64,000 nucleotides of DNA. It comes from Escherichia coli. Its GTDB lineage: Bacteria; Pseudomonadota; Gammaproteobacteria; Enterobacterales; Enterobacteriaceae. Position 1 is the stretch's first letter. Every line of letters begins with the position of its first letter. Under the pieces are notes generated by a model. The model saw nothing but the letters and a program-made list of their open reading frames with translations, searched no databases and was not told the origin of the DNA. The stretch is taken from assembly GCF_011045215.1 (NCBI RefSeq), contig NZ_CP049201.1. One strand, given 5' to 3'. The position numbers and the translations under genes are program-made. Shown piece after piece: positions 16,979-27,386 of the stretch.

Positions 16979-17350
16979 TCAACGAACCAGGGCAAGATTA
17001 CGAAAGCCCGCTCCCGCAAGGACTGACGCCAGATAGTTTCTGTCCATGGCTGCTTTTCGCATCTTACGTCTTAACCCTGCCTTGAATACCTTATCATTCG
17101 TCAAAATATTAATAGCAATGTGCCGTATCCCTGAAAATAATTCTGCAGCATTTCCTCTTCTTATTTTGCAGTCGTCTTCATTCATTACCACGTCCAGACG
17201 CCAGTGCAGCTTATTCTCCACGTGCCAGTGGTTTCGGATTGCTGTGGCGAACTTCTCTGCGGTTAAATCAGCAGAACTGATATAATATCTGACCGTCATT
17301 TCTGGCTCTTTCTTTTGTTCTGCTATTATTGACCGAAAGGAGACTGCCAC
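16979..17350 (-). mobile_element. Truncated H-repeat-associated (ISAs1-family) transposase remnant, C-terminal 123 aa only
   Basis: [30 protein letters not shown] is the conserved C-terminal DDE region of H-rpt/ISAs1 transposases (K-12 ydcC/yncI lie at the equivalent place). The N-terminal two-thirds is missing. Confidence 0.7.
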
Positions 17351-17667
17351 GCATAATTTCTTCAGTCCTTTCCATTCAAACGTGAAATCAATAAGTTCAT
17401 CAGGGACATCGCAAACAATATGAAGACGGATTTCTTCTCTGCCGTGACTAAAATGCGAATTATTTAGTACAAAAAAAGCGGCGCACCTTGTTCTTTCCCA
17501 GATTCCTAATATGGCAACTTTAAGTTATCGCCGTCTATACTTATAGAAATTTCATCAGGGGTGACGTAAATAGAATTTTTTTCATCCTCAATTGCCCATA
17601 ACTGATTAATAAAAAAGTATTTTTTTCATCTAATAAAAAATTATCACATGTAGTAAAATTATTAATA

Positions 17668-18327
17668 TCAAAAAAAATCATCAGCACAATTAATTTTTAA
17701 ATTTAAAAAATAAAGAAAAATATTATTGATTGATTTGAGTGTAAACCACTTGTCATTAACAAATTTATAGCCAGATGATTTTATAAAATAATAATTATCT
17801 CCTGGTATAAAGGCATACATATCATTTAAGGTTATACTCAACAAAAAACTACGACCTGGTTTAATAGTATTCCACCGTTCAGGATTCGTATTAATTTCAA
17901 AAGGACATGAACCACCTAAGTAGTCCAACGTGATATTCCCAGAGTTGATTCTGAATGGTTTTTTGCATATCGCATCATATTCATCTCCTTTTCCATCTTT
18001 TACTTTCATAGGTAGATAATATTTAGAAAAAAAATACGTGGTAGAGCTATTGTTAGTAAAGGTTATGTTAGCAAAAATCCTGTTATTTTTTTTACTCATA
18101 GCTAATTGAGCATTGACATCCGCTATATAATTTATATGATTACATTTTTTCTTACACTCATCATAATTTTCGATAGGATAAATTAATGGCCTTCCTTTGA
18201 TATCTCTCTCAAGCCCAAACCCGTATTTTTTTATTAAAACCATTTCATCCGCAGTCGATTGAAAGGAATAGAAAAATATAATATTTACGATTGTCATTAT
18301 TATGATTTTTTTTATAGCTTGCAGCAT
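17668..18327 (-). CDS. Hypothetical exported protein (219 aa) with N-terminal signal peptide; AT-rich island ORF
   Basis: Hydrophobic N-terminus IIIMTIVNIIFFYSFQSTADE; strongly AT-rich; no family recognised. Confidence 0.45.
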   Translation of the reverse strand: MLQAIKKIIIMTIVNIIFFYSFQSTADEMVLIKKYGFGLERDIKGRPLIYPIENYDECKKKCNHINYIADVNAQLAMSKKNNRIFANITFTNNSSTTYFFSKYYLPMKVKDGKGDEYDAICKKPFRINSGNITLDYLGGSCPFEINTNPERWNTIKPGRSFLLSITLNDMYAFIPGDNYYFIKSSGYKFVNDKWFTLKSINNIFLYFLNLKINCADDFF

Positions 18328-18350
18328 TAATATATTTCTCGACTTATTAG

Positions 18351-18653
18351 TTAATGGAGAAGTGCTTTTTCTAATTCCGCTATTTTTTTCTTAACTGAAT
18401 TGCTTAATATTTCATCATTAATCGAGTCTATCTCACTTTCAATTAATCTTATTTCAAAATATCTTTCTATGTTATATGCATTCTCAAATATTTGATCTTT
18501 TTGTTTAGAGATCAGTTTAGTTGCAATACGGATATGTTCGTCATATGAAACTTCATCCTCTTTGCACGTTGAATATTTATCAGTAGTTGTATAATTCTGT
18601 GACCACATACCACCTTTTTTATTATCCCCATAATACCACTGAATATGAGACAT
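18351..18653 (-). CDS. Hypothetical small protein (100 aa), candidate immunity or accessory protein
   Basis: ATG at 18651-18653 with GGAAAGGA upstream; AT-rich; inside the VgrG island. Confidence 0.4.
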   Translation of the reverse strand: MSHIQWYYGDNKKGGMWSQNYTTTDKYSTCKEDEVSYDEHIRIATKLISKQKDQIFENAYNIERYFEIRLIESEIDSINDEILSNSVKKKIAELEKALLH

Positions 18654-18691
18654 TTCATGACATAAAGTAGCAACATGAGAATCCTTTCCCG

Positions 18692-19141
18692 TTACTGGAT
18701 TTTTTTGCCATCTCTATACTCAAATTTTGCGCCTATGTTAATTATATAGGGCATATCCTTACTTGGGCTGACGAATGCTGCAAATTCATTACAACCTGTA
18801 TAATTTATAAAACTGCTCATTGTTAAATCATTAGCTATAATCATTAATCTTCTCACACCATCCATCATAAGAAATCTAGCATTCATGCGCCTAACTGTAT
18901 TATGTCCATATTTTCTTATATTAACTTCCTTATTTCCTTTAACACCAAAGATCTTACTGAAATCATATTCCTCCTGTGCTCCCCATCTCAAAAGATCATC
19001 TGCTCTTTTTATCAAAACCAACTTTTGTGCCTTACGAACCTTATCAATCATTATTTTAAAATGATCAGTTATTTTTTGCTCTTTCACACATTCTTCTGGC
19101 TCTGGCTTTGGTTGTCCAGAAGTTTGATTATTATCGTCCAT
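18692..19141 (-). CDS. Hypothetical protein (149 aa from the ATG with an RBS; the longest ORF runs to 19198)
   Basis: GGAAGGA then ATG (MDDNNQTSGQ...) at 19141; AT-rich; no recognisable domain. Confidence 0.4.
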   Translation of the reverse strand: MDDNNQTSGQPKPEPEECVKEQKITDHFKIMIDKVRKAQKLVLIKRADDLLRWGAQEEYDFSKIFGVKGNKEVNIRKYGHNTVRRMNARFLMMDGVRRLMIIANDLTMSSFINYTGCNEFAAFVSPSKDMPYIINIGAKFEYRDGKKIQ

Positions 19142-19327
19142 AGTGTCCTTCCATTGAGAGAAAATCATCATTCGCAAATAGCAACTAAAAAGCAGCATTA
19201 CTTGACCTTTCCCTGCATAACAATATTTATAAAATAATACGTTTTATGATCTCACCTTGGGCTCCCAACAAGATAATTTCAGTTTTAAAGACTTTCACGA
19301 AAAAATATAGAAATACCTCACCACCCT

Positions 19328-19618
19328 TCACTTACCAATTAATCTCACAGGAAATCCAACTTCCTTACCACAAATACAATCCCAAGTAACATTTCCCAAA
19401 ATTTTTGATACTTTAGGCTGCAATGGCATTATTGACATTATAAATTTATCAAGTTCTTCGCTATATTTAATTCCCTTTATATTTCTTATTATTGATATTC
19501 TAGCAGTAAAGATAGCCGTCTCTCCATCTACACTAAAAGTGTAATTACAATTTTTTGTAATCTCATCAAATTCAACCGATAACAAATCAATATTATGGTT
19601 TGTAAACACTATGCCCAT
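19328..19618 (-). CDS. Putative cognate immunity protein (96 aa) for the upstream T6SS toxin
   Basis: Start overlaps the toxin stop by 26 nt, a typical toxin-immunity arrangement; small and AT-rich. Confidence 0.5.
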   Translation of the reverse strand: MGIVFTNHNIDLLSVEFDEITKNCNYTFSVDGETAIFTARISIIRNIKGIKYSEELDKFIMSIMPLQPKVSKILGNVTWDCICGKEVGFPVRLIGK

Positions 19619-21032
19619 TCCATACCTCCTTAAATTCCTGTTCAGTCATCAGATATCGACTCCCTTGATATGGATCATATATTATCACATTCCCAGCATC
19701 ATCAACACCCTTAACAAGTACCCAATGTCCTACTTTACTTCCAGAATCCCACATCATTGCTCCCCATGAACCAGTATTACTGAGGGCATATAAACTAGAT
19801 TCGCTCACTGCATTCCCTTCCCAGCCGACATCAAATTTATTAAGCTTGTTTGCCAGCGACGTCATAGATGTTAATTCTGTTCCAATTACATTTTGCGTGA
19901 CAAAAATATACCTATCCCTAAGCAACATTTCCCCACAGGCCGCTCCACAGCCTGTTAAAGTCAATTGCTTTATTACATTTGAATCTAAAACCTCATCAAA
20001 TACTGTCCAATTGCCACCAGCACCACCTTCTAAAACTACCGGCTCTACAAATACTTTCCCAGAGATATTTTCTTCTGGTATTTTTGCGGGTATCATAAAG
20101 CCCCATAAAAAGCTGGAAAAATGCTCCAGAGCAATCTGATCACCATTATTTGCATCCATTATCATTTTTTTAAGTGCATCCCATGCTTGCCCATTTATCA
20201 ATGAATCACTAATATTAAATAAAGCCTGTTCTTTTTCGTTTAAATTTATATTTGCCTGTTCACATAACCCATCTTCGCCTATCGGGCAAGCAACCGTTGC
20301 CGTTGCCGTATCTAACAGAGCATCGAATGTAACTAAGGCTAAATCCGCCACACCATGTAAAGTGGTGATTGCTCCATTCCCCATTTGAGTAAGTGTGTTC
20401 TCTCCAAACCATTCTCTAATTTGAGATTTATCTCCTTCAATACCATTCCTGAGAGATTCTCTGATATTCTTTATTGAAAAAAACTCCCCCCATGATTGGT
20501 CAGGATCTTTTATTTGGAATAAATCATTTTTAACCTCAGGTGAAATATCTCCGTCAAAAATATTACCAACAGAGAGGAGATCCTTCAGAAGCAGTAAATC
20601 GTGTATTACTTCAGCAGTCCTTTCATAATTAAAACTTCTATCAATGACAGAAATCATTGGTGATTTTATTTTGGTATATAATTTACCAAGGCAGTTATGG
20701 TTATTAATCCCAACAACTGAACCATGATAAGCAACAGGTTTCCCTTCTATTGTTACAGTCGGACTTCCCGTTAAAATAACACAGTCACCCGTTCCTTGAG
20801 ATGTACCGGATATGACACCTTTACCGGCATTACTTTGAGTTCCAGCAATCACTGAACCAACATTTAAAGCTCTGCATCCACGCGCCCATACCGTTGAACT
20901 GTACTGTCTTTCACTATCTAAAGTCTGGTAACTGTCAAAAGGAACCTTGTAACCTCCTACTTCACATACATCTGGTGAAGTACACACGACTCTAAATCTA
21001 GATTCACCATCCCCGATATGATAGTTACCCAT
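19593..21032 (-). CDS. T6SS polymorphic toxin: N-terminal PAAR-like (DUF4150-type) domain, C-terminal papain-like cysteine peptidase (C39-like) domain; 479 aa
   Basis: N-terminus VCTSPDVCEVGG...GSPTVTIEGKPVAYHGS resembles PAAR-like spike-capping domains. C-terminus has a CGAAC motif at residues 362-366 and GHWVLV...D...IYDP at 436-453, a Cys/His/Asp arrangement like peptidase C39 folds. Follows vgrG and the DUF2169-like gene. Confidence 0.6.
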   Translation of the reverse strand: MGNYHIGDGESRFRVVCTSPDVCEVGGYKVPFDSYQTLDSERQYSSTVWARGCRALNVGSVIAGTQSNAGKGVISGTSQGTGDCVILTGSPTVTIEGKPVAYHGSVVGINNHNCLGKLYTKIKSPMISVIDRSFNYERTAEVIHDLLLLKDLLSVGNIFDGDISPEVKNDLFQIKDPDQSWGEFFSIKNIRESLRNGIEGDKSQIREWFGENTLTQMGNGAITTLHGVADLALVTFDALLDTATATVACPIGEDGLCEQANINLNEKEQALFNISDSLINGQAWDALKKMIMDANNGDQIALEHFSSFLWGFMIPAKIPEENISGKVFVEPVVLEGGAGGNWTVFDEVLDSNVIKQLTLTGCGAACGEMLLRDRYIFVTQNVIGTELTSMTSLANKLNKFDVGWEGNAVSESSLYALSNTGSWGAMMWDSGSKVGHWVLVKGVDDAGNVIIYDPYQGSRYLMTEQEFKEVWNGHSVYKP

Positions 21033-22071
21033 AATATTTTTTCCCTATACATTCAGGAATAATACAACTCAGCACTCCTTCTTTCATTCCAAAAAAATCA
21101 GGTATTGTTAATCTCCAGGTAAGGTATATTTCCTGTCGACTTAAATCGATAACCATTGTATCCGCAACAGGTAAGAACATATGTGATGTATTATGCTTGG
21201 TTTTTAATATAAGTACAGGTCGTATACCTGGCAATTTTGTCTTAACAACCTGTTCAAATTTAAAAAAACCTTCAAGAGAGATGTTTTCATCGCCAGAGAG
21301 AAACCCCGTGTATATCATATCCGGATGAGCACTATTGTAGAACCGCTCATCAAAATCATCCGGCAAATAGGGATAGCGCTTTTCACGCCATACTTCATTG
21401 TAGGTTCCTGCATACTGGAGGCGACTTTTCCACCATCGAGATACAGGGCCAACACCTTGAAAAAAGTCAGATTCCCCATTAAAAATGGTAGCGTTTTCTG
21501 ACAAAGCAGAGCTGGTTATTTGTGGGAGTTTATATTGACAACTTGTATTAAGTTGGGAAATATCAGGATAATATCCACAACCTACAGGGTTTGCTGAAAA
21601 AACCAATTTCTCCATACCATCTGGTTGCCAAATACCACCGTAAGCAAGCTCATAGCGTAGAGGAATATTAATAATTTTATCTGGTAAGCTCATCTGCCAA
21701 CGATTTCGCTCATATTGTAAGTAGCGGACACCAGATAAACTCAGTTCTTTAGAAAAACTATTAACCCTCACACAAGCCTTCCACTGAGACTTATCCCCTG
21801 AAGGGGCATGAGCACTACCTGTCACGTGAATATCTGTATTTCTTTTACAAAGAACTAAGTCTGTTTCAGATTTTAGACTACTTGTTTCAGGCTCCCCATA
21901 GTATTCATCAGACATGGACAATTCTCTTTGAAATTCAGCAAGATCAGCATAAAATCCATTTTTAATTCGCAATGACATTTTAATAGCAATAACATCAAAC
22001 AAAAGACCATAACGACCATATTTTTCAAATGACAACAAAGGAAATGGCGTGTTATTTTTCATTTCTATCAT
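21025..22071 (-). CDS. DUF2169-like T6SS adaptor/chaperone protein (348 aa)
   Basis: Called mainly by context: lies between vgrG and a PAAR-like toxin, and its stop overlaps the toxin start by 8 nt (translational coupling). Confidence 0.5.
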   Translation of the reverse strand: MIEMKNNTPFPLLSFEKYGRYGLLFDVIAIKMSLRIKNGFYADLAEFQRELSMSDEYYGEPETSSLKSETDLVLCKRNTDIHVTGSAHAPSGDKSQWKACVRVNSFSKELSLSGVRYLQYERNRWQMSLPDKIINIPLRYELAYGGIWQPDGMEKLVFSANPVGCGYYPDISQLNTSCQYKLPQITSSALSENATIFNGESDFFQGVGPVSRWWKSRLQYAGTYNEVWREKRYPYLPDDFDERFYNSAHPDMIYTGFLSGDENISLEGFFKFEQVVKTKLPGIRPVLILKTKHNTSHMFLPVADTMVIDLSRQEIYLTWRLTIPDFFGMKEGVLSCIIPECIGKKYYG

Positions 22072-22177
22072 GCTTATTGATCCCTGAATAAGTCATGCTA
22101 TGATTAATTTAAACAATCACAAATGGTGATTCACAGGCGTATAAAGCAAATACAATCACCATGTTTTATATTCTGCA

Positions 22178-24160
22178 CTATCCGTTCAGATGAATATCTT
22201 TTCCTTTAATATCTACAGGACCGGTAGCCTCAAATAGAAACTCCGTCCCCCGTATTATTATCTTTCCTGTTTTCTCCAGTTTTATGGAACAAGTCCCGCT
22301 CTCTCCCTGCCCACAAATTAGCTCAATACTGTCCCCAGATATGATTTTTGTACCATGCTCAACTTTCAGTTCGTAATTATCACCTATTTTAATACTCTGT
22401 TTTTTGACGACTTCTTCGGTATCAGTTCCCGTCACCTTGCTTGTCTGGTTGTTATTCACAACCTTGTGCCGGTCATTTTTTATCGTGAGATGCTGATCGT
22501 TCGCTACCGTCACTTTCTGGTCATGACCACCTTCCTTTTTGCTCCCCACATTCACCGTCTGGCCCTTCACCACCGTTATCTTCTGGTTGTTACCGATGGT
22601 TTCCGTATGGTCATGTTTCACATCCGTTGTCCGGTCGTTGAGCACCTCCGTATCCATGTTCTTCTGGGCATGGATATACACCTGCTCATTACTGGTGGCG
22701 TCTTCAAACCGTAGCTCGTTAAATCCGCTTCCTTTATAGGTTTTTGACCGGATGGTCATCTGCGTCTTCGTTCCCGGCAGGTCGCCCGGGGAGCGGTTAT
22801 CTTCATGGTAGGTCCGTCCCGTGACGATGGGCTGGTCCGGGTCGCCGTTCAGGAAGTCAACAATCACCTCCTGGCCCACCCGCGGTATCGCCAGGTTACC
22901 GAACCCCGGCCCCGCCCACGCCTGCGATACCCGCACCCAGCATGAACTCGCCTCCGTCATCCCGTGATAACGGTCCCAGTGGAACTTCACCCGTACCCGG
23001 CCATGTTCGTCGCAGAATATCTCCTCACCCTTCGGCCCGGTCACAATGGCACTCTGCGGCCCGTCCACCTTCGGTTTGCTTTGCAGCCGTGGACGCCACG
23101 TCCGGTCTGCCGGTATCACCTCTAACTGATTTCCCAGCGTGGTTCCCCTCCCCTGGCTGCCGTGCAGCGCCTGCGGCTGGCTTCCTGACAGTATGCTCTG
23201 TACCACCTGCCATTCACGGTTCAGCATCTTCTGCGGATGCCCCGTCAGCGTAAACCGCGTTCCCGGCCACAGCTTCGGTGAATTACTCTGCCCTGTGGCC
23301 TTTTCCGCATCACTGCGCAGGCTGTCCATCTGGTACAGCGTGAAATCCTTGCCGTGCTGCTCATCCTTGAACCTTCCCGGATAATCAAATATCTCGTACT
23401 GCGCCAGCTGTCCGTTCAGGTTCTCACCCTGCTGCTCATACATCCCCGGCCAGTCCGGCACCTTAAACGTGTAATCCTGACTCTGCACCGACGACGGGCG
23501 GACATGCGCCTCATAACGGAACGTACTGAGACACTCCGTCTCCGCTCCTGCCGATGTGTCCGGGTTAAACGGAAGCTCTCCCGCCTGTGACAGCCCCGCC
23601 ACATCGTCGCACAGCGTCAGCTTCTGCTCCGGGCTGTCCGCCGCAAACCGCTCAAAGAAGAAAATCCCCTCCTCCGCCCACAGCCGCGCCAGAAACGCCA
23701 GGTCGCTCTCTCCGTACTGGACACAGAACTCCCGCGCCGGATGGTCTTCATAAAACAGCGGCGTCCACTCCGTGACGCCGTTCTCATTCAGTAACGTGGC
23801 CGATATCGTCCGGATATCCTGCTGCTGGAAGATACGGAAGTTCTGCCGCAGCCCGCACCGCCATAACGGCGGCTCAATACGCAGGTGATAACGCATCTGC
23901 CAGCCATTGTTCTCCTGCATGCCAAAACCCGCCACCACGCCGGTGACATAACGCAGCGGGATGACGCCCTGCCAGATGGTCAGCGTCGCCTTCTTCTCCA
24001 GCAGCATCTCCGCCGTCTGCATAAAAGAGTCGCTGGCAACATCCACACTCATCACAAACGGATATGACTGGTTCTGGATTAACCTGAAGCTCACCACTGC
24101 AAAGGTGTCCGGCTCCTGGCCGTCAACCTCCAGCGTAAAGCGCAGACCTTTTAAGGACAT
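22178..24160 (-). CDS. vgrG: Type VI secretion spike protein VgrG (660 aa)
   Basis: N-terminus MSLKGLRFTLEVDGQEPDTFAVVSFRLIQ and central gp27/gp5-like regions (IFDYPGRF, HWDRYHG, VGQEVIVDFLNGDPDQPIVTGRTYH) are hallmark VgrG motifs. The C-terminal third is AT-rich and repetitive. Confidence 0.88.
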   Translation of the reverse strand: MSLKGLRFTLEVDGQEPDTFAVVSFRLIQNQSYPFVMSVDVASDSFMQTAEMLLEKKATLTIWQGVIPLRYVTGVVAGFGMQENNGWQMRYHLRIEPPLWRCGLRQNFRIFQQQDIRTISATLLNENGVTEWTPLFYEDHPAREFCVQYGESDLAFLARLWAEEGIFFFERFAADSPEQKLTLCDDVAGLSQAGELPFNPDTSAGAETECLSTFRYEAHVRPSSVQSQDYTFKVPDWPGMYEQQGENLNGQLAQYEIFDYPGRFKDEQHGKDFTLYQMDSLRSDAEKATGQSNSPKLWPGTRFTLTGHPQKMLNREWQVVQSILSGSQPQALHGSQGRGTTLGNQLEVIPADRTWRPRLQSKPKVDGPQSAIVTGPKGEEIFCDEHGRVRVKFHWDRYHGMTEASSCWVRVSQAWAGPGFGNLAIPRVGQEVIVDFLNGDPDQPIVTGRTYHEDNRSPGDLPGTKTQMTIRSKTYKGSGFNELRFEDATSNEQVYIHAQKNMDTEVLNDRTTDVKHDHTETIGNNQKITVVKGQTVNVGSKKEGGHDQKVTVANDQHLTIKNDRHKVVNNNQTSKVTGTDTEEVVKKQSIKIGDNYELKVEHGTKIISGDSIELICGQGESGTCSIKLEKTGKIIIRGTEFLFEATGPVDIKGKDIHLNG

Positions 24161-24178
24161 AAATACCTCTCAGACATA

Positions 24179-24463
24179 TCAGCCTATATTTACCGTACCG
24201 CCACCAATGACCACGCCGCCGCAGTCAACAGCATCACCGCTTCTGGCGGCGGGCAGGCCGTCAATAAAGACGGTTGAAGAACCTCTGGCGATTTTACGGG
24301 GATGAGGGGGATGCTTCGGTTTAGCATGCGGCGTCAGCGGATCTCCCTGACGGGCTGCGGGGAGACCATCGATAAAAACGGTGGATGACCCGGCGGTGAT
24401 GACGGTCTCGTAATAACCGTCGTGCTGAGTGCCTTTGTCGGTGAGTTTGGCTGCTAAAGGCAT
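24179..24463 (-). CDS. PAAR-repeat protein (T6SS spike tip), 94 aa
   Basis: Two copies of SSTVFIDGLPAAR(Q/S)GD plus an N-terminal AAKLTD motif; 18 nt upstream of vgrG on the same strand. Confidence 0.75.
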   Translation of the reverse strand: MPLAAKLTDKGTQHDGYYETVITAGSSTVFIDGLPAARQGDPLTPHAKPKHPPHPRKIARGSSTVFIDGLPAARSGDAVDCGGVVIGGGTVNIG

Positions 24464-25002
24464 AATTTCTCCTGTTCAGAATTTCTACAGCAGCAGGTTT
24501 CAAAAATCCGGAGAAATATTCAACGAAATATTAATCACTTCACCGGATATTCTGATACGTACCTTCACTGGTCTATTTAAGTAATACAAATTGTTGGCGT
24601 GTATTAAGTTCCATTTTGTTCTCCTTAATTATGTAAGGAGTATTTGATCATGTATAAGCAATAAAAACAGCTTCAGGAAATAAGGAATATCGCAATTTTT
24701 AAACATAAAATGCGAATCGTTCAATACAAAAAAGCAGCGTTGCGTAATCTTTCCCTGATTAAATACGCTACCGCCCTACCCTGATGACATGATCTGCACT
24801 GCACTATCATATCGACATGTTTCTCTACATGCGAAAAGATGTTTTATTTTCGGATTATATTAAATTGACATTTCATATAAAAAACGAAATTACATCAATC
24901 ATATAAATAATTGTACCAACTTTAATTACTATTCATAGCAAACAAATGGATATCCAGTTAACTACGCCAGTGATTCATTAACATTAACCTCCGGCATTAT
25001 TG

Positions 25003-25620
25003 TTAAATAATGACATTCCTTTTTAATACTTCTTGTAATTTCGGTAACTGACATACTGCATCAGCAATCGCACTGATATTCGTGGCATTATCCTGAAACC
25101 ATTCATGCCCAGGCCCCCATGTGCGCATAGTGCAAAGATAACAGTCCACCAGCGTTAGTTGCTCACCAAACGCATAAGGTTCAGCGGTCAATTGTGAATT
25201 CAGCCAGATATAAAGCGATTTACGATATTCAATAACATTCTTCTTTAACTGTTCAGGTGCGTCAGATGCCCAACGCTCAGGGTAATCGGCGAAAGTGAAT
25301 GTTGGATAGACATTAGCAACCAGCCAGACCAATAGCCGTTGAAACTGCTGACGTTCGGCGCGCCCAACCGGTGGCGCAAGGTCCGGGCGACGATCGAGAA
25401 CCATCAATGCAATCGCCGCTGTCTCCGTCATAATCTCGTCATTTTCCAGAGCCAGTGTCGGAACCTGACACAACGGGTTCAGGGTTTTCAATAACTCGCG
25501 TGAAGTTCCCTCGTGGTCAAAACCACTGACATCAACGAACTGATAAGGAATATCAGCTAGTGTTAGCATCAGCTCACTGATTGTAGAGCCCCATCCGGGT
25601 ACGCCATACACCTTAATCAT
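25003..25620 (-). CDS. yncG: Glutathione S-transferase homolog YncG
   Basis: 205 aa, MIKVYGVPGWGSTISELMLTLADIPYQFVDV (GST N-terminal fold). Confidence 0.85.
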   Translation of the reverse strand: MIKVYGVPGWGSTISELMLTLADIPYQFVDVSGFDHEGTSRELLKTLNPLCQVPTLALENDEIMTETAAIALMVLDRRPDLAPPVGRAERQQFQRLLVWLVANVYPTFTFADYPERWASDAPEQLKKNVIEYRKSLYIWLNSQLTAEPYAFGEQLTLVDCYLCTMRTWGPGHEWFQDNATNISAIADAVCQLPKLQEVLKRNVII

Positions 25621-25886
25621 ATGCCCCTCACAATCTTTTAAAGATTAAGTGTAGGACAGTACACAGGTTAACCAGCAAAAGGATTTGTCATTTTTTCGTC
25701 AGTTGTATTGATCCCCTTCAGGATTGTAAGGGGATGTTTTGCATCGTTTATCGATAACGGGTAGGATGCTGCGCCGATAGTTTTATACCCATAAAGAATA
25801 ATGGTGATAACTATCATCGCCAGGATGAATAAACATTGTTCATGGCAACTTATATGACTTTTTCATTAAAGCAATCAGGGAGAGCA

Positions 25887-27386
25887 ATGAGTAAACACGA
25901 CACCGACACTTCAGATCAACACGCCGCGAAACGCCGCTGGCTTAATGCCCACGAAGAGGGGTATCACAAAGCGATGGGCAATCGCCAGGTGCAGATGATC
26001 GCCATTGGCGGCGCGATTGGTACGGGTTTGTTTTTAGGCGCAGGAGCCCGACTGCAAATGGCGGGGCCAGCACTGGCATTGGTCTATTTGATCTGCGGCC
26101 TGTTTTCATTTTTTATTCTGCGTGCATTGGGTGAGCTGGTGTTACACCGCCCTTCCAGTGGCAGTTTTGTCTCTTATGCCCGCGAGTTTTTGGGTGAGAA
26201 AGCCGCTTATGTTGCGGGCTGGATGTACTTCATCAACTGGGCGATGACGGGGATTGTCGATATCACCGCCGTCGCTCTGTATATGCATTACTGGGGTGCG
26301 TTTGGCGGCGTGCCGCAGTGGGTCTTTGCGCTCGCTGCACTTACCATCGTTGGCACCATGAATATGATCGGTGTGAAATGGTTTGCGGAGATGGAGTTCT
26401 GGTTTGCGCTTATTAAAGTGCTCGCCATTGTGACCTTTTTGGTCGTGGGTACAGTGTTCCTCGGTAGTGGTCAGCCGCTGGATGGCAACACCACTGGCTT
26501 TCATTTAATCACCGATAATGGCGGCTTCTTCCCCCACGGTTTGCTGCCTGCGCTGGTGTTGATTCAGGGCGTAGTGTTTGCTTTTGCCTCCATTGAAATG
26601 GTGGGTACAGCTGCCGGAGAATGTAAAGATCCGCAGACCATGGTGCCTAAAGCCATTAACAGTGTGATTTGGCGTATTGGCCTGTTTTACGTCGGCTCCG
26701 TGGTGTTGCTGGTTATGTTATTGCCGTGGAGCGCGTATCAGGCGGGGCAAAGTCCGTTCGTGACGTTTTTCTCTAAACTGGGTGTGCCATATATCGGCAG
26801 CATTATGAACATTGTGGTGCTGACCGCTGCCCTCTCCAGCCTGAACTCAGGCCTGTACTGCACCGGGCGTATTCTGCGCTCGATGGCGATGGGCGGTTCC
26901 GCACCGAGTTTTATGGCGAAAATGAGTCGTCAGCATGTGCCGTATGCCGGGATTCTGGCGACACTGGTTGTGTATGTCGTCGGCGTATTCCTCAACTATC
27001 TGGTGCCGTCGCGCGTATTTGAGATTGTGTTGAACTTCGCGTCGCTGGGAATCATCGCTTCATGGGCGTTTATCATCGTGTGCCAGATGCGCCTGCGTAA
27101 AGCGATTAAAGAAGGCAAAGCAGCGGATGTCAGTTTTAAACTGCCTGGCGCGCCCTTCACTTCCTGGCTGACATTACTGTTTTTACTGAGTGTCCTTGTG
27201 CTGATGGCGTTCGATTACCCGAACGGGACTTATACTATCGCGGCGCTGCCGATTATCGGTATTCTGCTGGTTATAGGCTGGTTTGGTGTGCGCAAACGCG
27301 TTGCTGAAATTCACAGCACTGCGCCAGTCGTCGAGGAAGATGAAGAAAAACAGGAAATCGTGTTTAAGCCTGAAACGGCGAGCTAA
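25887..27386 (+). CDS. ansP: L-asparagine permease AnsP (APC family)
   Basis: MSKHDTDTSDQHAAKRRWLNAHEEGYHKAMGNRQVQMIAIGGAIGTGLF; 499 aa from the ATG at 25887. Confidence 0.9.
   Translation: MSKHDTDTSDQHAAKRRWLNAHEEGYHKAMGNRQVQMIAIGGAIGTGLFLGAGARLQMAGPALALVYLICGLFSFFILRALGELVLHRPSSGSFVSYAREFLGEKAAYVAGWMYFINWAMTGIVDITAVALYMHYWGAFGGVPQWVFALAALTIVGTMNMIGVKWFAEMEFWFALIKVLAIVTFLVVGTVFLGSGQPLDGNTTGFHLITDNGGFFPHGLLPALVLIQGVVFAFASIEMVGTAAGECKDPQTMVPKAINSVIWRIGLFYVGSVVLLVMLLPWSAYQAGQSPFVTFFSKLGVPYIGSIMNIVVLTAALSSLNSGLYCTGRILRSMAMGGSAPSFMAKMSRQHVPYAGILATLVVYVVGVFLNYLVPSRVFEIVLNFASLGIIASWAFIIVCQMRLRKAIKEGKAADVSFKLPGAPFTSWLTLLFLLSVLVLMAFDYPNGTYTIAALPIIGILLVIGWFGVRKRVAEIHSTAPVVEEDEEKQEIVFKPETAS

Follow-up and report, generated by a model that had tools for sequence, protein, structure and literature searches.

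A single-domain DUF2169 gene between vgrG and cpe1 in Escherichia coli, and its probable role as a chaperone of the Cpe1 toxin

What is the product of the gene that separates a type VI secretion spike gene from a toxin gene, and is its synthesis tied to that of the toxin? In the 64-kb stretch of Escherichia coli DNA analyzed here (hereafter, the window), a 348-aa open reading frame (21025..22071, minus strand, from the ORF list) begins with an ATG at 22071 and has the end of its stop codon at 21025. As a previous sequence-only reading had described, it sits between vgrG and a PAAR-like toxin gene. These neighbors span 22178..24160 and 19593..21032, respectively, and all three genes are on the minus strand. 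The upstream gene, vgrG (tssI), encodes a 660-aa spike protein (TIGR03361, E = 1.4e-180; TIGR01646, E = 7.9e-126), and 18 nt upstream of it lies the gene of a canonical PAAR protein of 94 aa (24179..24463, minus strand) that matched the NCBIfam family NF033420 (T6SS_PAAR_dom) above the curated cutoff (E = 1.4e-46).

The same reading had assigned the 348-aa protein to the DUF2169 family from its context and had proposed a Pfam search, which proved positive: PF09937 (DUF2169, IPR018683) matched aa 27–320 of the query over positions 7–294 of the 294 in the model (E = 1.7e-72, 244.8 bits). This is the single Pfam domain in the protein, which has no pentapeptide-repeat extension. A phmmer search matched the protein to 8VTH, the only solved DUF2169 structure (E = 8.8e-16). 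An AF2 model (pLDDT 93.4, pTM 0.91) consisted almost wholly of strands and displayed the all-beta fold, with three sheets forming two sandwiches, that is seen in PDB 8VTH. When this model was compared with the PDB using Foldseek, 8vth_A was the sole significant match (E = 1.7e-25, TM 0.78/0.84 over 344 columns), the next match having an E of 9e-3 and a TM of 0.11. The genetic linkage expected of the family was also present, with vgrG 106 nt upstream and a PF13665 gene overlapping by 8 nt downstream.

The protein clearly belongs, as a single-domain member, to DUF2169 (TvpA), a family of type VI secretion chaperones, and it is already annotated in RefSeq, where WP_000571854.1 (E. coli, 98.9% aa identity) carries the name "DUF2169 family type VI secretion system accessory protein". 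Neither the ORF nor the toxin matched an NCBIfam family at E ≤ 0.01; as RefSeq appears to have based its name on the Pfam domain, this says nothing against DUF2169 membership. The gene is an ordinary, already known feature: papers from 2016 to 2026 have described the family and its fold, the domain that it partners and how it serves to load PAAR-like effectors, and with the E. coli protein already named in RefSeq it has little importance beyond correct annotation.

The ORF is not a chance one, given its match to the Pfam family and the probability of about 6e-12 that 348 codons are free of stops at 37% GC. The start of the 348-aa form is supported because the alignment with homologues of 346–351 aa begins at residue 1, N6 does not vary, and residues 1–52 are confidently predicted strands in the AF2 model. 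A start at M53, which yields the 296-aa form found in the representative of one database cluster (P0001), was ruled out by this conservation and by the fold.

The order vgrG–DUF2169–PIPY effector–immunity is that of synteny type B (Sachar et al. 2025) or Tvp class I (Monlezun et al. 2026; PMC13373197 defines the TvpA classes), the simplest layout known. The neighbors of the DUF2169 gene encode PAAR, VgrG, Cpe1 and Cpi1 and include an M35-like pseudogene, and no DUF6484, thiolase-like, ARM-like or DUF3540 gene was found in the cluster of this single-domain DUF2169 protein. Two of the loci we compared depart from this layout: one (L011) has a DUF6484 gene upstream of DUF2169, and the other (L010) has two unassigned genes between DUF2169 and the PAAR-like gene. 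In gene order, the minimal vgrG–DUF2169–DUF4150 effector–immunity architecture is shared with Atu3641 of Agrobacterium tumefaciens C58, the Tde2 adaptor/chaperone that serves as the class I model, although the effector there is an Ntox15 DNase and not, like Cpe1, a papain-like protease; a further difference is the PAAR gene that immediately precedes vgrG in E. coli. The DUF2169 proteins of Vibrio parahaemolyticus (VP1398) and V. xiamenensis (PDB 8VTH) are likewise single-domain proteins of ~340 aa and share the fold and the aromatic residues of the thumb loop described below, but they are only 22% identical to the E. coli protein, their gene is in a synteny type A/class II cluster with DUF6484, thiolase-like and ARM-like genes that the E. 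coli locus lacks, and the motif of their partner reads PIPY where Cpe1 has KVPF. In TvpAB of Serratia marcescens Db10 (class III), a DUF2169 (TvpA) domain also stabilizes a DUF4150/PAAR protein on VgrG (PMC13373197), whereas the C-terminal pentapeptide-repeat extension, TvpB and TvpC (DUF3540), and two-step pre-complex of that class have no counterpart in E. coli. The DUF4123 (Tap-1/TEC) and DUF1795 (Eag) chaperones follow the same logic, in which a small gene between vgrG and the effector gene directs a specific effector to a specific VgrG, but their folds and families are unrelated to DUF2169, and the E. coli protein matches DUF2169 only.

Judged by sequence identity, the downstream toxin (479 aa) is E. 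coli Cpe1: it is 98.5% identical to the Cpe1 annotated in RefSeq and retains the catalytic residue C362. Its PAAR-like N-terminus (DUF4150, "PIPY") matched Tox-PAAR-like (PF13665; E = 8.2e-12, aa 15–115 against positions 2–107 of the 108 in the model) and is followed by a papain-like cysteine protease toxin that matched Peptidase_C39 (PF03412; E = 1e-5, aa 352–474). Cpe1 is a cysteine protease that cleaves GyrB and ParE (PMC12136450). The immunity gene cpi1 (19328..19618, minus strand; 96 aa, 99% identical to RefSeq cpi1) starts within the end of cpe1, overlapping it by 26 nt, and its start is preceded by AAGGAGG.

We propose that the ORF product very probably acts as a dedicated cytoplasmic chaperone/adaptor of the PAAR-like N-terminal domain of Cpe1. 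The function of the DUF2169 protein in E. coli is inferred from homology, and we likewise infer that it binds its partner physically, that Cpe1 delivery requires it, that the two genes are translationally coupled and that the system is active in this strain. The expectation of the sequence-only reading that a DUF2169 protein is needed to load DUF4150 effectors onto their cognate VgrG agrees with the literature (PMC6945064, PMC11883445, PMC13373197). Atu3641 is required for Tde2/VgrG2 in A. tumefaciens, where, in this class I model, deletion of DUF2169 blocks secretion of the cognate VgrG (PMC6945064), and VP1398 is required in V. parahaemolyticus (PMC11883445). Topoisomerase-cleaving Cpe1 very probably depends on a class I DUF2169 chaperone, a dependence left unconsidered by the Cpe1 paper, in which DUF2169 is nowhere mentioned (PMC12136450).

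The steps of the mechanism that we envisage are borrowed from characterized relatives. The flat, all-beta DUF2169 protein would grasp the cone-shaped PIPY domain of Cpe1, and a flexible aromatic thumb loop (Y224, W228 and F240) would cover a hydrophobic V-P-F patch. The chaperone would thereby keep Cpe1 soluble and allow it to cap, at the tip, the trimer of the VgrG whose gene immediately precedes its own, and a type VI secretion system (T6SS) encoded elsewhere in the genome would fire the loaded spike. In the target cell, Cpe1 would then cleave GyrB and ParE; the producer would be shielded by Cpi1.

Alignment to 8VTH placed the predicted protruding thumb loop at about aa 209–246 (21334..21447, minus strand). 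Y224, W228 and F240 in this loop are equivalent to F209, W213 and F225 of VP1398, and the first two align with F210 and W214 of 8VTH. In V. parahaemolyticus, both PIPY binding and killing are lost when the VP1398 aromatic residues are mutated (PMC11883445). Among 48 homologues, W228 was invariant and Y224 and F240 were each conserved in at least 90%. On the partner side, alignment of PIPY domains placed the P(I/V)P(Y/F) motif of Cpe1 at K29-V-P-F32 (20937..20948, minus strand), so that of the two prolines with a predicted chaperone contact Cpe1 lacks the first (K29), a point against the chaperone reading. The position of this proline is variable across the enterobacterial clade (K, V, P or A, in KVPF, VVPF, PVPF and AVPF), the second proline and the aromatic residue are conserved, and distant PIPY members read PIPY or PVPY. 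When DUF2169 was folded as a (G4S)5-linked fusion to Cpe1(1–125), using an alignment in which nine homologue rows were paired and further DUF2169 rows unpaired, the chaperone was modeled confidently and the PIPY part had a pLDDT of 25–64 (pTM 0.70); values under 50 covered the linker and most of PIPY, and the last ~30 PIPY residues scored 53–64. This model therefore lends no computational support to binding. The PIPY alignment was probably too shallow, and a word-indexed protein search with the PIPY domain alone, which returned only nine near-identical fragments, did not deepen it.

Is expression of the toxin tied to that of the chaperone? The 8-nt overlap between the DUF2169 stop and the toxin start that the sequence-only reading had reported can be read directly from the DNA as ATGGGTAA (21025..21032, minus strand). 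On the minus strand the DUF2169 frame ends with ...AAA TAT TAT GGG TAA, and that of the toxin opens with ATG GGT AAC. The pair thus has the structure of coupled genes, with an overlapping stop and start and a Shine–Dalgarno (SD)-like AGGGA inside the coding end of DUF2169 (21042..21046, minus strand), 9 nt before the cpe1 ATG; at this position relatives have AAGGGGG, AAAGGAG or AAGGGAG. The order vgrG–DUF2169–PIPY effector recurred in nine further homologue loci at 41–59% identity, eight of which have an overlap of 8 or 11 nt. The 8-nt form, as ATGGCTGA, ATGGCTAA or GTGGCTGA, was found in six of them (L004, L013, L014, L006, L016 and L009) and the 11-nt form in two (L008 and L015), and the remaining locus (L017) has no overlap but a 3-nt gap. 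The toxins of these nine loci have differing C-terminal domains (Ntox15, Rhs, EndoU or colicin-DNase) or none that Pfam recognizes. In this clade the stop/start overlap has been conserved, and its conservation favors coupled expression of the chaperone and the toxin, short of proof. Overlap and SD together probably tie synthesis of the toxin to that of the chaperone, which is consistent with the mostly 1:1 ratio of DUF2169 to DUF4150 genes (Sachar et al. 2025).

Alternatively, the overlap could be mere genome compaction, with cpe1 translated independently from its own SD and no real coupling. We regard this as a serious possibility but a somewhat doubtful one. The AGGGA before the cpe1 ATG and the AAAGGAG-type SDs of relatives could recruit ribosomes de novo, and, besides the gapped locus, there are more distant systems in which the two are separated by 31 nt or by other genes. 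A neutral arrangement would not, however, be expected to keep an ATGGNTRA overlap across six further lineages and an 11-nt overlap in two more, at protein identities as low as 41%, when the overlap forces the last residues of the chaperone to H/Y/R-G. Scans of 17000–26000 yielded nothing convincing in the way of a promoter or terminator between DUF2169 and cpe1: the eight terminator-like sites matched expectation (6.8 in shuffles), and the 37 promoter-like sites were moderately enriched (24.4 in shuffles), as expected of AT-rich DNA.

The module PAAR–vgrG–DUF2169–cpe1–cpi1 of the window forms an orphan island at the yncG/pptA (K-12 RhsE) site, flanked by narZ...pptA and by yncG-ansP-yncE. The gene of WP_000571854.1, which encodes a protein of equal length, is elsewhere, in the main, aspV-side T6SS cluster near yafV/ivy (for example, in NZ_OZ547152.1), and that copy has the same order of five genes, the same 8-nt overlap and the same 106-nt spacer. 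In a 100-nt sliding comparison with the aspV-cluster copy (L001), identity rose from 83–87% to 99–100% at about 22563, and GC content fell from 57–61% to 37–39% at the same point, setting off the 3' part of vgrG (22178..22563, minus strand; about aa 533–660) as part of a low-GC cassette. The cassette, which comprises the C-terminal ~128 aa of VgrG, DUF2169, cpe1 and cpi1, was 97–100% identical per 100-nt window between the two chromosomal sites, compared with 74–98% for the rest of vgrG and the PAAR gene. Over whole genes, the PAAR gene was 87% identical in nucleotides and vgrG 93.5%, its 5' ~1.6 kb ranging from 83 to 98% per 100-nt window. Overall, the low-GC cassette is ~99% identical to its counterpart in the main T6SS cluster of other strains.

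A cassette that includes the VgrG C-terminus moves between chromosomal sites. Its co-inheritance with that C-terminus fits the finding of Bondage et al. (2016; cited in PMC6945064) that cargo specificity is set by the C-terminus of VgrG. Tentatively, and aware that the odds are against it, we suggest that the unit of exchange may be the last ~128 vgrG codons with DUF2169, cpe1 and cpi1, recombined within vgrG onto locus-specific PAAR–vgrG "heads"; VgrG would then have two alternative tips, the canonical PAAR and the chaperone-dependent PIPY domain of Cpe1, with DUF2169 deciding between a Cpe1-armed and an empty spike. The two E. coli DUF2169 copies differ at six codons (two synonymous and four nonsynonymous), too few for a meaningful dN/dS.

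Could this DUF2169 gene be bona fide and functionally idle, part of a decaying orphan vgrG island that is silenced or lacks a compatible T6SS and so has no secretion role here? The 64-kb window contains no T6SS core genes, and a DUF2169 gene was found at the yncG/pptA site in just two of 5426 complete E. coli genomes, both with damaged modules, one with IS600 in vgrG and a truncated DUF2169 and the other with a frameshifted VgrG end and a truncated Cpe1; on these grounds the island may be silent or unusable in its host. O145:H28 strains have at this site a deletion spanning the VgrG C-terminus to the Cpe1 N-terminus. The adjoining M35 peptidase gene is frameshifted in the window, and DNA of 37–39% GC is of the type silenced by H-NS, a delta-hns donor having been needed in the Cpe1 study (PMC12136450). 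We nevertheless consider idleness unlikely: the module has its five genes undamaged and at full length, 99% identical to the main-cluster copy of other strains, C362 and the chaperone contact residues are kept, and it is common for orphan vgrG islands to rely on a T6SS whose genes lie at another locus.

It is highly improbable that the upstream canonical PAAR caps VgrG instead of the Cpe1 PIPY domain, with DUF2169 acting as a bridge by which Cpe1 is fixed to the flank or C-terminal region of VgrG. In favor of this reading, the PAAR gene closely precedes vgrG at this site and in the aspV-cluster copy alike, this locus is atypical in that a DUF2169 gene seldom has a PAAR gene nearby (Sachar et al. 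2025), and Cpe1 lacks the first proline of the motif. Against it, the N-terminus of Cpe1 matches the Tox-PAAR-like cone domain, published AF3 models and mutagenesis of relatives put DUF2169 around a tip-bound PIPY cone (PMC11883445), and the PAAR gene is not carried along with the cassette (87% versus 99% identity between sites) and is therefore not specifically tied to Cpe1 loading.

Hairpins in the 106-nt spacer between vgrG and DUF2169 (22072..22177, minus strand), including one formed by ATGGTGATT and AATCACCAT, were no more stable than those of shuffled sequences (z = −1.7, with 11 of 200 shuffles equally good), and we claim no regulatory element there. The spacer carries an SD-like AGGGA 10 nt before the DUF2169 ATG, and it is just 15–17 nt long in relatives outside E. 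coli.

The 348-aa ORF begins with ATG and occupies 21025..22071 in the ORF list. At 37% GC, a frame of 348 codons would stay open by chance with a probability of about 6e-12. The sequence-only reading had placed it between vgrG and a PAAR-like toxin gene, and the ORF list together with the profile matches of the neighbours bore this out; the sole correction is that the gene lies on the minus strand. The neighbours, also on the minus strand, encode a 94-aa PAAR protein (24179..24463; NF033420, E=1.4e-46), a 660-aa VgrG (22178..24160; TIGR03361, E=1.4e-180), a 479-aa Tox-PAAR-like toxin (cpe1, 19593..21032; PF13665 and Peptidase_C39-like) and the 96-aa product of cpi1 (19328..19618), recognized from the ORF list and from the RefSeq naming of the same module. 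The 348-aa start is backed by homologues of 346-351 aa that align from residue 1 with an invariant N6, and residues 1-52 form confident strands in an AlphaFold2 model. A 296-aa start at M53, as in the representative of the 90%-identity database cluster P0001, was ruled out by this N-terminal conservation and the predicted strands. The existence of that representative indicates that some pipelines call a truncated gene without three conserved N-terminal strands.

Membership in the DUF2169 family, previously inferred from context, was confirmed by profile search (PF09937, E=1.7e-72, model positions 7-294 of 294). Among solved structures, the only relative is 8VTH, a DUF2169 protein of Vibrio xiamenensis (sequence match, E=8.8e-16). 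An alignment of 48 homologues, drawn from a search with 91 DUF2169 hits, served as input for AlphaFold2. The resulting model (mean pLDDT 93.4, pTM 0.91) consists nearly entirely of beta strands, and when the PDB was searched with Foldseek only 8vth_A matched it significantly (E=1.7e-25, TM 0.78/0.84), all other matches having TM values of ~0.1. In DUF2169 proteins a flexible protruding loop contacts the partner domain, and the substitutions F209A and W213A in VP1398 abolished or weakened binding and killing (Sachar et al., PMC11883445). In the 8VTH alignment, F209, W213 and F225 of VP1398 correspond to Y224, W228 and F240 of the window protein; among the 48 homologues W228 never varies, and conservation of Y224 and F240 reaches at least 90%.

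Two Pfam domains were matched in the predicted client: Tox-PAAR-like (DUF4150; PF13665, E=8e-12) at the N-terminus, over aa 15-115, and a Peptidase_C39-like domain at the C-terminus, over aa 352-474 (E=1e-5). By megablast, the five-gene module occurs in 299 of 5426 complete E. coli genomes at 96-97% identity, and RefSeq names its genes PAAR, Vgr, 'DUF2169 family type VI secretion system accessory protein', cpe1 and cpi1, so the feature is already known and annotated. Cpe1 is a T6SS effector, a papain-like cysteine protease that cuts GyrB and ParE at a GG motif through catalytic residue C362 and is neutralized by Cpi1 (PMC12136450); C362 is kept in the window Cpe1. The paper describing Cpe1 makes no mention of a DUF2169, adaptor or accessory gene (PMC12136450). 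At the position of the P(I/V)P(Y/F) motif of its DUF4150 (PIPY) domain, the window Cpe1 reads K-V-P-F; the first proline varies throughout the enterobacterial clade (VVPF, PVPF, AVPF), and PIPY or PVPY occurs in distant members.

An 8-nt overlap between the adaptor stop and the toxin start had also been reported, and the sequence itself shows it: on the minus strand, the junction runs TAT TAT GGG TAA in the 348-aa frame and ATG GGT AAC in the 479-aa frame, the two genes sharing ATGGGTAA at 21025-21032. We compared this junction with those in the fetched loci of eleven further homologues. The overlap is again 8 nt, with ATGGCTGA, in Escherichia sp. (L004, 59% identity), Salmonella salamae (L013, 57%), a metagenome (L016, 44%) and a MAG (L009, 41%), with ATGGCTAA in another metagenome (L014, 56%) and with GTGGCTGA in Hafnia paralvei (L006, 56%); it is 11 nt, with ATGGCGGATAA, in a metagenome (L008, 50%) and a Logan sequencing-run assembly (L015, 49%). 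One metagenomic locus (L017, 43%) has a 3-nt gap and no overlap, and the distant L010 and L011, whose layout is not the minimal type B, are arranged differently. Because the downstream toxins vary among these loci (Ntox15, Rhs, EndoU and colicin-DNase, with three lacking a recognized toxin domain), it is the chaperone/PIPY junction that is conserved and not the toxin. Nearly all homologue loci have an SD-like, purine-rich element 6-10 nt ahead of the toxin start, and the window has AGGGA at a distance of 9 nt. Conservation of the overlap gives good comparative support for coupled expression of chaperone and client, which would fit the mostly 1:1 ratio of DUF2169 to DUF4150 genes across genomes (Sachar et al., PMC11883445). 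A second tight operon junction lies downstream, where the cpi1 start, preceded by a strong SD (AAGGAGG), overlaps the cpe1 end by 26 nt (19593-19618, minus strand).

DUF2169 loci have been sorted into syntenies A, B and C (Sachar et al., PMC11883445) and into Tvp classes I to III (Monlezun et al., PMC13373197). Since the window protein is single-domain and its cluster contains no DUF6484, thiolase-like, ARM-like, DUF3540 or pentapeptide-repeat genes, the locus is a minimal system of synteny type B, class I. The experimental model of this class is Atu3641-Tde2-VgrG2 of A. tumefaciens, in which VgrG2 is no longer secreted once the DUF2169 gene is lost (PMC6945064). Two features are atypical: the K-V-P-F partner motif, and a canonical PAAR gene (24179-24463, minus strand) 18 nt upstream of the same vgrG, although DUF2169 genes are rarely found near PAAR genes (Sachar et al., PMC11883445). 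Sequence and predicted structure make the window protein a textbook example of a class I DUF2169/TvpA chaperone, and the earlier adaptor interpretation is supported by the PF09937 match, the 8VTH fold, the contact residues and the gene order.

In the literature on the family, a thumb loop of DUF2169 binds a hydrophobic patch of the PIPY cone (PMC11883445) and keeps the effector able to cap VgrG, export of the cognate VgrG and effector needs DUF2169 (PMC6945064), and comparison with Eag chaperones has led to the proposal that DUF2169 remains in the cytoplasm. The pairing of DUF2169 with PIPY has been linked with cytoplasm-acting toxins, of which Cpe1 is one. By analogy, the 348-aa protein would chaperone Cpe1 onto the adjacent VgrG. 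When it was co-folded with Cpe1 residues 1-125 as a linker fusion, the PIPY part was modelled with low confidence (pLDDT 25-64; pTM 0.70 for the model), which lends binding no computational support. Translation of cpe1 is probably coupled to that of the 348-aa gene.

The island lies in the E. coli chromosome between narU-narZ...nhoA-yddH-pptA and yncG-ansP-yncE...pqqU, where K-12 carries its RhsE element. The 64-kb window contains no T6SS core genes, and this is therefore an orphan vgrG island. We compared it with the main T6SS cluster copy of strain AHB7. The PAAR gene has 87% nucleotide identity (74% in its first 100 nt) and falls outside the conserved cassette, and the first ~1.6 kb of vgrG has 83-98% per 100-nt window; from ~22563 onward, the part of vgrG for residues ~533-660 is co-inherited with the spacer, DUF2169, cpe1 and cpi1 at 97-100% identity per 100-nt window. 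Where identity rises, GC drops from 57-61% to 37-39%. Because of this identity rise and GC step at ~22563, the mobile unit appears to comprise the chaperone, effector and immunity genes along with the sequence for the VgrG C-terminus. Joint transfer would be expected if the VgrG C-terminus specifies the accepted chaperone-effector complex, and that it specifies cargo is the finding stated in the title of Bondage et al. 2016 (cited in PMC6945064). Recombination breakpoint and GC step coincide inside vgrG, at ~22500-22600. The vgrG-DUF2169 spacer (22072-22177) is 106 nt in E. coli versus 15-17 nt in Hafnia, Escherichia sp. and metagenomic relatives; its inverted repeat ATGGTGATT/AATCACCAT does not fold significantly better than shuffles.

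At the yncG site the module is intact in the window, and all other complete E. coli genomes with a module there have lesions in it: one has IS600 in vgrG and a truncated DUF2169 gene (L002), baboon strain A30 has a frameshifted VgrG end and Cpe1 truncated to 331 aa, and O145:H28 has lost a segment reaching from the C-terminus of VgrG to the N-terminus of Cpe1. In both yncG-site loci where cpi1 is identifiable (O145:H28 and 2018-05-2CC) it is intact, which looks like retention of orphan immunity. Downstream of cpi1, a 'peptidase M35'-like gene with a HEMSH motif (18351-19198, minus strand) is split into ORFs at 18692-19198 and 18351-18653 because of a 1-nt deletion in an A8 run near 18700, as seen by comparison with E. 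coli 2018-05-2CC, where the 263-aa gene is intact; this pseudogene is possibly a decayed second island toxin. Just downstream, a 219-aa ORF (17668-18327, minus strand; 27% GC) with a hydrophobic signal-like N-terminus has no NCBIfam match and may encode an immunity protein or be an orphan gene of the island.
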